64,000 nucleotides of DNA from Clostridia bacterium (GTDB lineage: Bacteria > Bacillota > Clostridia > Oscillospirales > Butyricicoccaceae), in contig JAFTDT010000111.1 of assembly GCA_017453985.1 (NCBI GenBank), forward strand, positions 7,679-71,678. The letters run 5' to 3'. Of this stretch, positions 52,364-60,026 are shown in pieces. Under the pieces are notes generated by a model that ran no database searches, was not told where the DNA came from, and was given only the letters and a program-made list of their open reading frames with translations. The translations under genes were made by a program, and so were the position numbers. Numbering within the stretch: the first letter of the stretch is position 1; each line of letters opens with the position of its first letter.

Positions 52364-52915
52364 TTATATCTCAATAGAGGGAAAAGCGACGCCTTGCGCG
52401 TTCAGCGTGCGCAGCAGGGTGAGCCGCTCGTTAAACCGCTCCGCCGCGAGGCTTATCTCGCAATCGCTGGGGTGGTCCTTCAAAAGCTCCCAGCGCGCTT
52501 CGCTGGCGGGATTGGCGCTGTGCGGTCCCGCCTTCATGGAGCGGAAGGACTCCAGCATCTTTTGGCTCATATGCCCGTTGCAGACGATGCCGCCGATGAC
52601 GGTGTTGCGCGCCTTTACGCATTCCGCGCCGTTGTGCAGCGAGGCGGCTCCGTGGGCAGCGTCACACCAGAACGCCAGCGTGCAGAAAATGCCGACGTGA
52701 TTGCCCTCGACACGCTCCATCAGCTCGCGCATCGGCTGGCAGGGACCGGCACGGTCTACCCAATAGCCGAGCAGCAGCACGTCGCCGTCAAGCTCCGGCT
52801 CGCCCTGCGAAAGGTCGTGCAGACTCTTGTCCTCGCAGTCCAGCCGCTCAAAAATGCCGCGGGCGAGCTTTTCCGTACAGCCGGAGAGACTGTGATATAT
52901 TACCTGTACCTTCAT
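52364..52915 (-). CDS. Flavodoxin-like protein
   Basis: MKVQVIYHSLSGCTEKLA N-terminal FMN-loop-type start. 183 aa. Last gene of the nitrogenase-like operon, 9 nt after the preceding stop. Confidence 0.7.
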   Translation of the reverse strand: MKVQVIYHSLSGCTEKLARGIFERLDCEDKSLHDLSQGEPELDGDVLLLGYWVDRAGPCQPMRELMERVEGNHVGIFCTLAFWCDAAHGAASLHNGAECVKARNTVIGGIVCNGHMSQKMLESFRSMKAGPHSANPASEARWELLKDHPSDCEISLAAERFNERLTLLRTLNAQGVAFPSIEI

Positions 52916-52924
52916 GTCATGTCC

Positions 52925-54157
52925 TCACTTCAGCGTGTTGAAATAAGCTTCCACATACTCCATCAGCATATCCGCGCCGCGCGGTCCCATCACGGGCATG
53001 TGCGTCGCCACCTGCGCGCCGTCGATGACGGGCGTGGATATGCGCATATAGGTGTTGCTGCCGTCCGCCAGTCGGCGGGAGGTGTCGTCGGCAAGGATCA
53101 GCGTGCGCTGCGTGCCGCGCAGCAGCTCCATGCGGTCGCGCTCCGTCGGGAGATATTCTATCCCCTCCGGAGGCGTCTCCAGCGTGCTGAGGTTGTGTAT
53201 GCTGATGCGGCGGGCGGGCGTAATGCCGATGCTCTCCAAAAACTCGCTCAGCCCGCGCACGGTCTCGCAGTCGCCGTACAGCAGCGCCTGCGGTCTGTCG
53301 CGCCGCAGCATCCTGCCGTACATCTTGTACTGCATCGCCTCGGCGGCACGCTTTTTCAGCTCACCGACGAGGGCGGGCGCAGGCTCTCTGCCGAGCGCCT
53401 TGCCGACGCTCTCCAGCCAAGCCAGCGTACCGGCATAGCCGTAGGGCGCGCCGCAGACATAGGGCATGCCGCATTTGCTTTCCAGCATGCGGGCGGCGTC
53501 CAGCGCCTCGCCGCGCATGACGAGATTTATCTCCGCGCCGCCCATGGTGCGTATGCGTTCCAAGTCGGTTTCCAAACACAGCCGCGCATGCGGCTCCATG
53601 CCGAAAGCCTCGCGCATCAGCCGTTCTGTTTCCAGCATATCCGCCTTGCAGCGGTAGCTGCCCACGGAGGCGCCGATGATATTGTATGTACCGGCGCGCT
53701 TGGGCACGCCGCTCTCCGCTATCTGCTCCGCCAGCAGGCGGTAAGTCTCGCGGATACCGGCGGAATAATCGCCGCGGAAGCCGCCCTGCTCAAAGGCAAC
53801 GAGCCGGGCGTTCACCTTCGGTTTTATCATAGTGCAGACGCCGCGCAGGTCGGTGCCGATGACGGCGGAGCAGGAGGAGGCGGAGACGAATATCACGGAC
53901 GGGTGAAAGTTATTGTCCACCTCGACAAGCGCCTTTTCCAGCCGCGAGGTGTCGCCCATGACCACATCGTCCTCGCGCAGATGGGTGGTGAACAGGCGGT
54001 TTTCCTGTTCGATGCCCAGCTCTCCGAACAGGCTCATGCTGAAATGCGTGGTCCCGGCGGGACCGTATTCCACGATGACGCTGTCTTCTATGTTCAGCAG
54101 GCTCCAAAGTATGCCCATGCGGTCGCTGGGCACGGGGAGAAAACGGGTCAGACTCAT
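52925..54157 (-). CDS. Nitrogenase component-1-type oxidoreductase, NifK/NifN/BchB-like subunit
   Basis: Oxidored_nitro-like three-domain layout. FVSASSCSAVIGTD (conserved Cys context). Start is ATGA-coupled to the D-like gene, with AAAGGAGG RBS. Confidence 0.75.
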   Translation of the reverse strand: MSLTRFLPVPSDRMGILWSLLNIEDSVIVEYGPAGTTHFSMSLFGELGIEQENRLFTTHLREDDVVMGDTSRLEKALVEVDNNFHPSVIFVSASSCSAVIGTDLRGVCTMIKPKVNARLVAFEQGGFRGDYSAGIRETYRLLAEQIAESGVPKRAGTYNIIGASVGSYRCKADMLETERLMREAFGMEPHARLCLETDLERIRTMGGAEINLVMRGEALDAARMLESKCGMPYVCGAPYGYAGTLAWLESVGKALGREPAPALVGELKKRAAEAMQYKMYGRMLRRDRPQALLYGDCETVRGLSEFLESIGITPARRISIHNLSTLETPPEGIEYLPTERDRMELLRGTQRTLILADDTSRRLADGSNTYMRISTPVIDGAQVATHMPVMGPRGADMLMEYVEAYFNTLK

Positions 54158-55455
54158 TGCATCGCGCCTCCTTTGCGGATATTTTTGCCTTCCTCGGCGG
54201 CAGCGGCGAGCTGCTTTACAAAATAACCGGTGACCTCATAGCCCAGCATGCCGCCGCCCATGTCCGTGTGCACCTGGGCGATGCCTTTTTTGCGCAGCCG
54301 CATCGGGTATTCGTGACCAAGATAGAGCTGCGGGCGCAGCACGTCATAGATATACTGCATGGGGGATATGTTGGCGGACTGCGTGATATACGGGTCGGCG
54401 TGCGTCAATATCTGCCGCACGTCCTCGGCGTCAGCCTCGCCGATGCCGTGACATTGCACAAGCTGCGGCTCCATGCCGAGCGACGCCATAAAAGCACATG
54501 CTTCAAAGGCGCGGAACGGCGTGTTGCCGTAGATAAAGCTCACGCCGCGCAGGGCGGCTTTGCCGCTCTCCGCCGCTTTTTCCGCCTCGGCTCGCAGGTC
54601 GGCAAGCTCCATCGGCAGGGGACGCTCCAAAAAGGCGAAAAGATTTTCATACGCCTCTGCGATGTGCCGCGGCTCTACGAACTTGTCGAAAAACACATAC
54701 GGCGTGCCAAATCGCTGCTTCATCTTCTTTGCCAGCGGCAGACCGATATCATTGACGACGATATTCACCTTGGCGGCGCTTGCGCGGCGTATCTCCGCCA
54801 GCGTGCATCCGCTGGGCAGTCTTGCGCCGATGCGCACGCCCGCGCTTTCAAGCACGCGGGACAGCTCCGTGTCCTCAAACCTGCCCATGCGCTGTCCGAG
54901 CACGTTTACGCTGCCGTCCTGCTCGCAGGGCTGCATCAGCCCGAAGCAGGCGGTTATCGTGCGCTCCACGCCCGGCATGTGATTTTCGCATTTAAAATGC
55001 TCGGTGTGCACCGCCATGACGGGCACGCCGTACTGCTCGCTCAGCGCGTCTGCCGCCGCGTCAAAATCGTCGCCGATTATCTCCGGCACGCAGGTGGTGA
55101 CGAGGAAAACCGCCTCCGGACGGCGCTCCGCCATCAGCTCGGCAAATGCCGCCTCGACCTTCTTCACGCAGCCGAAGGTGATGTCGTGCTGGTCGATGGT
55201 CACGGACAGACAGCGTCCGTCCAGACCGCCCCAGTCGTCGGAATATATGGTCATGTGCTTGGTGTAATACGAACATTCGTCGGTGCCGATTATCATCATC
55301 ACCGCGCCGTCTATCCCGCGCACAGCCATTGCTGCGCCCATCAGCGGGCAGTGCGTGCCGGGAAACTGCGCGTAGGTGAGGGAATGGATATCCTTGCGCG
55401 GATCATCGATCTCGCTCAGTCGTTTGAGGCGGGACAAGAGTTCGTTTCCGTCCAT
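54154..55455 (-). CDS. Nitrogenase component-1-type oxidoreductase, NifD/NifE/BchN-like subunit
   Basis: PGTHC-x24-C(DEC) and VTTCVPEIIGDD reproduce the three-Cys cluster-ligand pattern of NifD/NifE/BchN. ATG at 55455 follows AAAGGAG. Confidence 0.78.
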   Translation of the reverse strand: MDGNELLSRLKRLSEIDDPRKDIHSLTYAQFPGTHCPLMGAAMAVRGIDGAVMMIIGTDECSYYTKHMTIYSDDWGGLDGRCLSVTIDQHDITFGCVKKVEAAFAELMAERRPEAVFLVTTCVPEIIGDDFDAAADALSEQYGVPVMAVHTEHFKCENHMPGVERTITACFGLMQPCEQDGSVNVLGQRMGRFEDTELSRVLESAGVRIGARLPSGCTLAEIRRASAAKVNIVVNDIGLPLAKKMKQRFGTPYVFFDKFVEPRHIAEAYENLFAFLERPLPMELADLRAEAEKAAESGKAALRGVSFIYGNTPFRAFEACAFMASLGMEPQLVQCHGIGEADAEDVRQILTHADPYITQSANISPMQYIYDVLRPQLYLGHEYPMRLRKKGIAQVHTDMGGGMLGYEVTGYFVKQLAAAAEEGKNIRKGGAMQ

Positions 55456-59170: not shown

Positions 59171-59182
59171 TTTGATCTCCTC

Positions 59183-59986
59183 CTAAGCATTGGAATTTGT
59201 TGTATGAAAACAGACCTGCGCCTGATTTTCATCATCGGCGGAAAGCCGCAGCACGGTCTCTGCCAGCTCGCGGTACACCGCGCACAGCGGAGAGTCCGGC
59301 ACGCATTCGAGCACGGTGCCGCCCAGCGCCTCGGCGCGCTGGATATCGCCGCTGCGGGGAACATAGGCGACGACCTCCGTGCCGATCTCCTGCGCGGCGC
59401 GCGCCACGATCTCACGCTCTCCCTCAATGTTGCGGGCGTTGAGTATCAGACCGGCGAGATGCGCGTACCCGCGCGAGGCAAAGCTGCGCACGGCGCGGGC
59501 GATATTGTCCGCCGCGTACAGCGCCATCATCTCACCGGAGGAGACGATGAATACCTCGCGCGCATAGCCCTCGCGGATCGGCATGGCAAAGCCGCCGCAC
59601 ACCACGTCGCCCAGCACGTCGTATATCACGATATCCGGGCGGTAGATCTCGAACGCCTCCAGCTCGGCAAGCTTTTCAAAGGCGGAGATGATGCCGCGCC
59701 CGGCGCAGCCGATGCCAGGCGTGGGGCCTCCGCTCTCGACGCACAGCACGCCGCCGCTGCCCTCAAACACGATATCGTCCAGCCTCAGCGCGTCCTGCTT
59801 TTCGCGGAGCTGATCCAGCACGGTGGGTATGCGCCTGCCGCCCATCAGCCCCTTGGTGGAGTCCGCCTTGGGGTCGCAGCCCACCTGCATGACGCGCAAG
59901 CCCATGCCGGCGAGCGCGGCGGAGAGGTTGGAGGTGGTGGTGCTTTTGCCGATGCCGCCCTTGCCGTAAATAGCTATTTTTCTCAT
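59183..59986 (-). CDS. NifH/BchL/CfbC-family ATPase (nitrogenase iron-protein-like)
   Basis: [18 protein letters not shown]-loop, CDPKADST switch I, and [4Fe-4S] Cys contexts GIGCAGRG and VVCGGFAMP. The ATG at 59986 gives the canonical N-terminus. Confidence 0.9.
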
Positions 59987-60026
59987 GATAGATCGACCTG
60001 CCTTGCTTTGCAGCATCCCTCTGTGA

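Follow-up and report, generated by a model that had tools for sequence, protein, structure and literature searches.

We analysed a 64,000-nucleotide stretch (the window) of contig JAFTDT010000111.1 (assembly GCA_017453985.1), from a Clostridia bacterium of the Butyricicoccaceae. It contains an operon in which the genes of a nitrogenase-like reductase, a NifH-like ATPase (H) and a pair of NifD- and NifK-like subunits (D and K), enclose those of an ATP-binding cassette (ABC) importer for metal chelates, and which ends with a flavodoxin gene. Our overall explanation, to which we assign a probability of about 0.5, is that the locus encodes a self-contained module by which strict anaerobes (gut and rumen Firmicutes) would import an iron compound and reduce it for iron acquisition. 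The components of this reading differ in strength. That the enzyme is an iron-acquisition reductase acting on an imported chelate is rather probable; for haem or another iron tetrapyrrole as its substrate, the odds are somewhat short of even. Tentative, and on the unlikely side, is the most specific proposal, namely that the reductase forms an unassigned branch of the superfamily for oxygen-independent iron mining, in which the porphyrin ring of imported haem is reduced and the iron freed, all under DtxR-type control.

The open reading frames (ORFs) and Pfam domains of the window were checked against an earlier note on this DNA, made from the letters alone. The seven co-directional, tightly packed or overlapping minus-strand genes that it described (52364–60016; Table 1) were confirmed, as were all the protein motifs that it quoted, including C-x24-C and TTCVPEIIGDD. 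The gene for the substrate-binding protein (SBP) and the permease gene overlap by 11 nt, as do those for the permease and the ATPase; D and K overlap by 4 nt (ATGA) and are translationally coupled through it. The D-like frame is open to 55530, but its ATG at 55455 falls 15 nt past the ATPase stop codon; for H, the ATG at 59986 is probably the true start. Fer4_NifH, Oxidored_nitro, Peripla_BP_2 and FecCD, the assignments suggested as a check, were all made by Pfam. H has the P-loop, switch I and II and the two cluster cysteines of the two-component reductases of the nitrogenase superfamily and is accompanied by the adjacent Oxidored_nitro pair; the SBP, permease and ATPase all exceed the Pfam gathering thresholds for the domains that make up a type II (BtuCD/Fec/Isd-type) importer. 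A second H, D or K paralogue was not found by tblastn within the window.

Conservation of the arrangement was assessed in 28 related loci, 21 from a scan of one genome per species and 7 from exact-protein look-ups, in which gene order was determined by tblastn with the window proteins. The order H-SBP-permease-ATPase-D-K was present in essentially all of them, at D identities of 51–85%; the exceptions were L006, which is devoid of the permease and ATPase genes, and L016, in which the SBP gene precedes H. The carriers were Clostridia from the rumen, the human gut and the chicken gut (Oscillospiraceae, Lachnospiraceae, Christensenellaceae and Peptostreptococcaceae) and the isolate CHKCI001, and the six-gene order was also observed in one Spirochaetaceae metagenome-assembled genome (MAG) and one diderm gut bacterium. 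Recurrence in 28 independent loci far exceeds chance. The linkage of importer and reductase, which the earlier note had left to a neighbourhood survey, is thus conserved in relatives, and its presence in essentially all of the 28 loci favours the proposal that the imported chelate is the substrate of the reductase; the remainder of that proposal is read from gene context. Flanking genes vary between the loci, indicating that the module is self-contained. A divergent AraC gene was present in most of the loci. The flavodoxin gene, at the end of the operon in 13 of the 28, is therefore better viewed as encoding an accessory electron donor than the obligatory one. Radical-SAM or extra Oxidored_nitro genes were absent from the Pfam-annotated flanks of the seven close relatives L022–L028, and in the related loci we found neither a nifB-like gene in the annotated flanks nor a further biosynthetic enzyme conserved beside the module. 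The D family is abundant, with hundreds of clusters at 90% identity, some of which have thousands of members (human, chicken and ruminant gut), and its culturable carriers include Phascolarctobacterium succinatutens and Clostridiales bacterium CHKCI001. In L006 (a rumen MAG) the SBP gene runs directly into a D-like gene (1439–4223), the result of a deletion or fusion or else of an error in assembly.

A diderm carrier and more distant relatives combine the reductase with other parts for metal-chelate uptake, in line with the suggested link to a chelate or tetrapyrrole. In the diderm, which is prevalent in the human gut (P0119, 97 contigs), the six genes lie among genes for TonB, for two TonB-dependent receptors, for one more SBP and for a protein of PF04187; this is the 'cofacial haem binding' (ChaN-like) family, a member of which lies under the same palindromic operator (see below) in L022. 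The distantly related locus of P. succinatutens reads MerR / TonB-dependent receptor-SBP-H-D-K. In L150, an importer with a NikA/CntA-like SBP_bac_5 protein is divergent from H-D-K-flavodoxin, with DtxR-like genes alongside. Typing of the TonB-dependent receptors as a clue to the substrate was ambiguous among siderophore, haem and B12 models. In L149 (P. succinatutens) a second Oxidored_nitro D/K set adjoins a DUF3793-flavodoxin operon. The two D/K-type sets of this genome are at 1–576 and 10001–12582, about 10 kb apart, and one of them ends beside a palindrome-controlled group of DUF3793, flavodoxin and ABC exporter genes.

Family placement of the reductase subunits was based on NCBIfam equivalog cut-offs and on the positions of cluster ligands rather than on a reference tree, and residue conservation was taken from alignments of 22–27 relatives. 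The best NCBIfam models for H were CfbC (344.6 bits, cut-off 402) and nifH (336.3 bits, cut-off 394), with about 205 bits on the BchL and BchX models (BchL cut-off 345); the nearest solved structure by sequence is the Fe protein of Clostridium pasteurianum (1cp2, 1.7e-80). For both D (89.6 bits) and K (93.4 bits) the best model was nifE, the cut-off of which is 505. All other Nif, Vnf, Anf, Bch and Cfb models scored lower: nifN gave 37 bits for D and 32 for K (cut-off 327), nifD 58 (cut-off 654), nifK 39 (cut-off 427), BchN 41 (cut-off 420), BchB 62–72 (cut-off 490) and CfbD (TIGR03282) 27 and 41 (cut-off 268). The possibility, raised at the outset, that D and K fall inside NifDK or NifEN was not borne out, every equivalog being far below its cut-off. 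The top match in the PDB by sequence was the NifEN fusion 9i0g for D (1.5e-23) as well as K (1.8e-28). An AlphaFold model of D (pLDDT 88.7) was nearly equally distant from NifK, NifN, NifD, MarD and BchB (TM 0.67–0.78, 14–20% identity), and fold comparison was thus uninformative for subgroup placement.

The cluster ligands are more telling. Across 23 relatives, H shows no variation in the P-loop, in the switch regions or at cluster cysteines C104 and C140. D has three invariant cysteines (C36, C61 and C122) that match the positions of NifD Cys62, Cys88 and Cys154, and when aligned to C. pasteurianum NifD an invariant Asn231 takes the place of Cys275, the ligand of the iron-molybdenum cofactor (FeMo-co) or L-cluster. 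In K, the positions of NifK Cys70 and Cys95 are occupied by Ser11 and Thr36, the latter invariant and part of the motif YGPAGTTH, and C96, at the NifK Cys153 position, is kept in just 7 of 23 relatives; C194, H38 and D12 are invariant. Thr36 also corresponds to the fourth-ligand position Asp36 of BchB, as mapped via the NifN alignment and what we take to be the BchB motif around Asp36. With three invariant cysteines in D, no canonical cysteine in K and Asn at the Cys275 position, D/K is likely, judging from these residues, to hold one [4Fe-4S] cluster between its subunits, ligated by three cysteines in the manner of DPOR, instead of a P-cluster combined with a complex cofactor. This 3-Cys/Asn signature of D was present in 88 of 102 full-length representatives (from the best 150 clusters of a library of 1.84 billion proteins), which places the D of the window in a branch of the superfamily that is large, diverse and without a name. 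One member of its 90% cluster (P0121, MBQ9535994.1) is publicly named 'oxalate:formate antiporter', an evident annotation error; the other member names are generic. In P0243, P0248 and P0253, Peripla_BP_2 is joined in one chain with Oxidored_nitro, Fer4_NifH or FecCD; these are true fusions of module genes or gene-calling artefacts on short contigs.

On these scores and ligand positions, H, D and K match no named family. A true nitrogenase would bind FeMo-co through alpha-Cys275 and alpha-His442, the first of which is replaced by Asn231 here; it would also have six P-cluster cysteines, of which only the three of D are conserved, and scores above the nifH, nifD and nifK cut-offs, which none of the proteins reaches; for a NifEN maturase, both the nifE and nifN scores were below cut-off. 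DPOR (BchL/ChlL with BchNB/ChlNB) and COR (BchXYZ), both of Group V, also combine a NifH-like ATPase with a heteromeric Oxidored_nitro pair, draw three cluster cysteines from the N/D-like and no canonical one from the B/K-like subunit, have no site for FeMo-co or an L-cluster, and act on a metallotetrapyrrole, which for the window genes is only proposed. All Bch scores were nevertheless below cut-off, Thr stands at the BchB Asp36 position, and the window genes are part of an uptake operon under iron-type control in non-phototrophic carriers rather than of a pigment cluster. CfbCD (Group IV-B) shares simple [4Fe-4S] chemistry on a metallotetrapyrrole, and CfbC is the best model for H; the differences are sub-cut-off CfbC and CfbD scores, two distinct D and K genes instead of a homomeric CfbD, bacterial non-methanogen carriers and the absence of linked cfbA/B/E genes. 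Methylthio-alkane reductase (MAR; MarBHDK, Group IV-C) and isethionate reductase (IsrBHDK, Group IV-F) likewise act on imported nutrients beside ABC importers under nutrient-limitation (sulfur) control. MarDK, however, has six P-cluster cysteines, an L-like cluster and the partner MarB, and Isr has IsrB, whereas the window has no K-subunit cysteines, Asn at the Cys275 position and no linked NifB-like gene; its importer is of the Fec/Isd type, and its regulon is iron-type, not sulfur-type. Group VI nitrogen-fixation-like (NFL) proteins (Elusimicrobia type) are described with many co-located radical-SAM genes and a NifH branching beside Group V (10.1101/765248); the absence of radical-SAM neighbours and the much higher scores of H on NifH and CfbC than on BchL argue against membership of that group.

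By model score, the SBP is nearest to haem binders. The best NCBIfam model was IsdE, a haem SBP, both for the tandem protein of the window (183 bits) and for the single-domain SBP of L022 (85 bits); siderophore and B12 models scored about half as high on the SBPs, and all of these values are below cut-off. The permease matched the BtuC, FhuB and FecD models, also below cut-off, and the ATPase scored 285.6 bits on FecE (cut-off 375) and 240 bits on the haem ABC ATPase model (cut-off 261). The solved proteins near the SBP by sequence include IsdE (2q8p) and the Isd-like Lmo2184 (5joq). A Foldseek search with an AlphaFold model of the C domain (pLDDT 91) gave 5joq (first), 3tny, 4m7o and 2q8p (fourth) as top matches. 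The axial haem ligands of IsdE are, we assume from the literature on 2q8p, Met78 and His229, a numbering that fits the chain fragments of this entry. In pairwise and profile alignments the Met78 column contained Met or His in 32 of 33 domains: all 17 of the N type have Met, and all but one of the 16 C-type domains have one or the other. N-type and C-type are two paralogous SBP domain types, which occur singly, fused in tandem (as in the window) or as two separate genes. Tyr, Phe, Trp and Met are frequent among the SBP residues conserved in the alignment of relatives, and an Arg/Lys cluster of the kind seen in catecholate binders is absent from them. These sequence features favour a metallotetrapyrrole such as haem as the ligand, short of proof. 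The SBP is encoded by two genes in L002 and L008 and by one in L003, L010 and others, and both domain types retain Met/His at the Met78 position. Like the Isd/Hts-type haem importers (IsdEF and the Lmo2184 system), the window importer consists of a Peripla_BP_2 lipoprotein, a FecCD permease and a FecE/HmuV-like ATPase; unlike them, it has a duplicated binding domain and lacks NEAT-domain and sortase B partners as well as an oxygenase of the IsdG/I type, and a nitrogenase-like reductase stands where the haem-degrading enzyme would be expected.

A link to iron is suggested by the regulation. A palindrome, GTTAG-N6-CTAAC, with the fuller consensus RGTTAGC-N4-GCTAACY, is situated in the intergenic region between H and the AraC gene. 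This conserved operator, the dominant regulatory signal of the locus, had been missed by the earlier note; it lies at the same promoter-proximal place in 26 of the 28 loci and belongs to what looks like a DtxR-type iron regulon. In the window it is 8 nt downstream of the −10 hexamer of the AraC promoter, and a promoter-like site for the operon faces that promoter from the other side (Table 1). The operator thus sits between two face-to-face promoters, and one bound protein could therefore silence both the AraC gene and the operon. In most relatives a −10-like box (TATAAT or TATACT) is found immediately upstream of the palindrome. Elsewhere in the loci the palindrome recurs ahead of the gene for an FTR1 iron permease (in triplicate), of a ChaN-like gene accompanied by one for a TonB-dependent receptor, of DUF2325-DUF3793-flavodoxin operons, of a DUF6110/P-type ATPase pair and of genes for small membrane proteins. 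Individual sites were recorded at L002 12226/12325/12354, L009 3675/5244, L015 88/117/9805, L022 12592 and L149 672. The trio DUF2325-DUF3793-Flavodoxin_1 lies directly behind the palindrome in L009 (3878–5209) and L149 (704–1717); its recurrence behind an iron-type operator suggests that both DUFs may take part in an iron-sparing response in which flavodoxin replaces ferredoxin.

A scan of metagenomes with AGTTAGCNNNNGCTAACT yielded at least 130 sites, represented by 120 loci (L029–L148). Among the matches listed, 123 of 130 sites were intergenic (uncovered by any ORF of at least 150 residues), a share far above chance for gene-dense DNA. Pfam assignments of the 121 genes nearest the listed sites comprised 6 DtxR-family repressors, 4 FeoB, 4 ZIP, 8 DUF2325, 3 DUF3793, 9 ABC exporters (the most frequent class) and 3 NifH-like ATPases, and at these sites the DtxR and feoB genes start 10–200 nt from the palindrome. 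The contigs bearing the palindrome span 26–66% GC. These neighbours suggest that the palindrome is the operator of an autoregulated DtxR-type repressor and that the iron-starvation regulon of this repressor includes the operon of the window. We infer the identity of the repressor and its response to iron from the company the sites keep, and its metal specificity (Fe or Mn) from the regulon content. An iron-type operator narrows the physiology to iron acquisition. A published description of the RGTTAGC-N4-GCTAACY box was not found in the searched literature.

Other roles for the palindrome were considered. That of an RNA hairpin or leader was rejected: its arms are conserved in sequence without covariation, it sits between or just after promoter hexamers, and it precedes unrelated genes. 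A binding site for the AraC protein is unlikely, as the palindrome occurs without an adjacent AraC gene (L005, L007, L015, L022) and beside DtxR and feoB genes in unrelated contigs. A second conserved motif, TTGTCAAT, is not a separate element; read on the other strand it is TTGACA, the −35 box of the AraC promoter. A search for riboswitches of all Rfam families gave no hit in the window or in 7 diverse loci.

The following sequence of events would account for these features. Under iron scarcity, a DtxR-type repressor would leave GTTAG-N6-CTAAC and thereby release both the AraC gene and the seven-gene operon, to which the AraC protein would probably add substrate-specific activation. The type II (BtuCD/Isd-like) importer, with its IsdE-like domains, would take in an iron chelate, most likely haem or another iron tetrapyrrole. 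An H homodimer with a [4Fe-4S] cluster and two ATP would receive low-potential electrons from flavodoxin or ferredoxin and pass them, coupled to ATP hydrolysis, to a D2K2 complex. The cluster of this complex would be a simple inter-subunit [4Fe-4S] held by the three D cysteines, with the fourth ligand non-Cys or absent and with neither FeMo-co nor an L-cluster. D/K would then reduce the imported molecule; if this is haem, the electrons would go to the macrocycle, in the way that DPOR, COR and CfbCD reduce their tetrapyrroles. Reduction would loosen the iron, which could be released without oxygen; alternatively, the Fe(III) of a chelate of very low potential would be reduced. Coupling to ATP makes sense for either substrate, since both reductions are beyond the reach of ordinary ferredoxins. 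Oxygen-independent release of haem iron is known from the radical-SAM enzymes ChuW/HutW and from the HmuS-type dechelatase, which have the role proposed here (haem iron without O2 in gut bacteria) and belong to unrelated enzyme families. The well-characterised members of the superfamily with a simple [4Fe-4S] cluster, DPOR, COR and CfbCD, all reduce C=C bonds of tetrapyrroles; isethionate reductase, with a predicted [4Fe-4S] cluster, breaks this tetrapyrrole precedent (PMC13474568).

Several observations weigh against iron acquisition by reduction of an imported tetrapyrrole. The substrate, the reaction and the release of iron are all inferred from gene context, and we know of no precedent for the liberation of iron from haem by reduction of the macrocycle. 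By sequence or fold, D and K are no nearer to DPOR than to NifEN. The 183 bits of the SBP on the IsdE model are for two domains and compare with an equivalog cut-off of 298; the position of the second axial ligand, His229, is not conserved in the SBP domains, and the siderophore binders YfiY and YclQ are interleaved with the haem binders in the fold search with the C domain. Models of siderophore, haem and B12 receptors give similar scores for the TonB-dependent receptors of the diderm relatives, and the NikA/CntA-like importer of L150 points to metallophores other than tetrapyrroles. Finally, the window itself contains no DtxR-family gene.

The iron regulon and the Fec/Fhu/Fep-type importer would fit equally well with an ATP-driven ferric-siderophore reductase, which would deliver one low-potential electron to the Fe(III) of a xenosiderophore, so that Fe(II) dissociates and the ligand stays intact. 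YfiY, YclQ, CeuE and FhuD2 are close fold neighbours of the SBP domain, AraC-type activators are typical of siderophore systems (the helix-turn-helix (HTH) region of the AraC protein matches the Btr and RhrA models of NCBIfam), and a NikA/CntA-like metallophore SBP is present in L150. The potentials of ferric tris-catecholates, near −750 mV, would justify the coupling to ATP. We still regard this explanation as unlikely, although it deserves to be kept in mind: the SBPs have no conserved cluster of basic residues, their best hidden Markov model (HMM) is IsdE and not a siderophore SBP, the position of the haem axial ligand is occupied by Met or His, and the regulon includes a ChaN-like haem-binding protein. 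Moreover, a large D2K2 component is unnecessary for an outer-sphere one-electron transfer, and the known siderophore reductases are small flavin or [2Fe-2S] proteins. Improbable, in our judgement, is a role in salvage or remodelling of a tetrapyrrole (a corrinoid, a chlorophyll-derived chlorin or another porphyrinoid) for cofactor supply or pigment detoxification instead of iron. DPOR, COR and CfbCD are indeed biosynthetic tetrapyrrole reductases, BtuF and BtuC models match secondarily, the herbivore rumen, the habitat of many carriers, is rich in chlorophyll derivatives, and Phascolarctobacterium depends on B12 enzymes. The import of cobalamin or corrinoids was down-weighted because no riboswitch, including one for cobalamin, is present in the window or the 7 loci and because the neighbourhood is that of an iron-type operator; the operator is shared with feoB, FTR1, DtxR and flavodoxin genes, which points to iron supply. 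In addition, no further biosynthetic enzyme accompanies the module, and the module is also present in human and chicken gut bacteria.

The NifE model and the NifEN fusion, the best HMM and PDB matches of D and K, could also indicate a scaffold or maturase on which H and D/K build an imported metal or chelate into a metallocluster or metallocofactor, as was suggested in PMC3464626. We consider this a rather remote option. The NifE matches are very weak (about 90 bits against 505), an invariant Asn replaces the L-cluster/FeMo-co cysteine, the related loci have neither a linked NifB-like radical-SAM gene nor a candidate recipient enzyme, and the fold search showed no preference for NifEN over NifDK, MarDK or BchB. 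Fixation of N2 by a cryptic or alternative nitrogenase can be practically dismissed. H reaches 336 bits on the nifH model, and Group IV-A Nfa shows that atypical homologues can fix N2, but the FeMo-co ligand Cys275 and the P-cluster cysteines of the K subunit are missing, the nifD and nifK models give no more than 58 bits (cut-off 654) and 39 bits (cut-off 427), and the module is embedded with a chelate importer under an iron-type operator; no nifB/E/N was seen nearby, though the window was not checked gene by gene for nif genes.

The arrangement itself has been described before. Dos Santos et al. 2012 (PMC3464626) reported NifEN-like genes downstream of nifH and an ABC ATPase gene in Clostridium botulinum (CLM_0808/0809) and Alkaliphilus oremlandii (Clos_0313/0314), with three P-cluster cysteines in the E-like subunit and none in the N-like one, which is exactly the pattern of D and K in the window. 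They also saw such genes beside those of ABC transporters in other species and proposed that metal transport is coupled to cofactor assembly; regulation, SBP analysis and a function were not given. Likened by description, this clade is probably the same family as the window locus or a sister family. The gene arrangement is therefore not new, and the earlier statement that no function had been assigned to it holds for the searched literature only with this addition. What appears to be new is the membership of an iron regulon, the haem-type character of the binding proteins and the finding that the module is widespread and conserved. In the searched literature we found no further mention of the four locus tags and no characterised orthologue of an importer-linked H-D-K module; the 'nitrogenase-like' proteins of Methanococcus voltae are IssA/NifB-like and unrelated. 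Groups IV-D and IV-E of North et al. are uncharacterised NFL clades. A review of July 2026 attributes function to Nfa, CfbCD, MAR, ISR and DPOR/COR alone among nitrogenase-like systems; it regards the other clades as a major challenge and does not mention this arrangement.

According to the 2026 review, the function of uncharacterised nitrogenase-like enzymes is among the main open problems of the field, and genome context has so far been of 'little help'. The importer-linked family is an exception, with the importer in the operon, an iron-type operator and haem-type binding proteins; informative context, abundance and culturable carriers make a specific hypothesis directly testable. If correct, iron acquisition by import and reduction would reveal by what means commensals that are strict anaerobes gain iron, without oxygen, from haem or tightly bound chelates, and would add a catabolic, nutrient-mining reaction to a superfamily of N2 fixation, pigment and cofactor synthesis, and sulfur scavenging. 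Should haem be the molecule reduced, anaerobes would have a third way to reach its iron, besides radical-SAM ring opening and the dechelatases, and this route would be widespread in abundant gut and rumen commensals. The nifH-like genes of the module belong to the 'pseudo-nifH' pool that inflates estimates of diazotrophs in gut metagenomes (PMC8597730).

Table 1. Genes and regulatory sites of the importer-linked reductase operon and of the divergent AraC gene (window positions).
Feature	Position	Strand	Assignment or description
AraC-family regulator, divergent	60167–60856	+	HTH_18/HTH_AraC at residues 149–225
Promoter-like site of the nifH-like operon, TTTAGA-18-TATGAT	60094–60123	-	9/12 consensus; faces the AraC promoter across the operator
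Palindrome GTTAG-N6-CTAAC, here GTTAGTTATATCTAAC	60063–60078		One exact match in the window
AraC promoter TTGACA-17-TATAAT, extended −10 TG	60027–60055	+	12/12 sigma-70-type consensus
NifH-like ATPase (H)	59183–60016	-	Pfam Fer4_NifH, 326 bits
Tandem Peripla_BP_2 lipoprotein (SBP), 637 residues	57257–59170	-	Pfam, two stretches, 142.7 bits
FecCD/BtuC-type permease of type II ABC importer	56236–57267	-	Pfam FecCD, 316.8 bits
FecE/HmuV-type ABC ATPase	55470–56246	-	Pfam ABC_tran, 110.7 bits
D-like subunit (NifD/E/BchN-like)	54154–55455	-	Pfam Oxidored_nitro, 205 bits
K-like subunit (NifK/N/BchB-like)	52925–54157	-	Pfam Oxidored_nitro, 220 bits
Flavodoxin, last gene of the operon	52364–52915	-	Pfam Flavodoxin_3 (PF12641), 107 bits
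14-bp GC-rich hairpin directly after the flavodoxin stop	52313–52347		Terminator-like site, scored on the plus strand

The hairpin behind the flavodoxin gene is the probable end of the minus-strand operon. For the flavodoxin the best NCBIfam model was BilS (67.5 bits, cut-off 155). The N-terminal 125 residues of the AraC protein matched no family or solved structure. Beyond the operon end are a tRNA gene (51582–51654, plus strand), with its own near-consensus promoter (51539–51567) and a strong terminator hairpin (51663–51698), and a 167-residue ORF (51727–52230, plus strand) that has no match in Pfam or NCBIfam; both lie between the operon end and a giant surface-type ORF of 3110 residues (41587–50919, plus strand), which has a signal peptide and C-terminal S-layer-homology-like repeats. 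On the other side, an ABC exporter of 537 amino acids with fused membrane and ATPase domains (60947–62560, minus strand) is convergent to the AraC gene. The palindrome was not found ahead of this exporter gene; similar exporters adjoin the module in L004 and L006.

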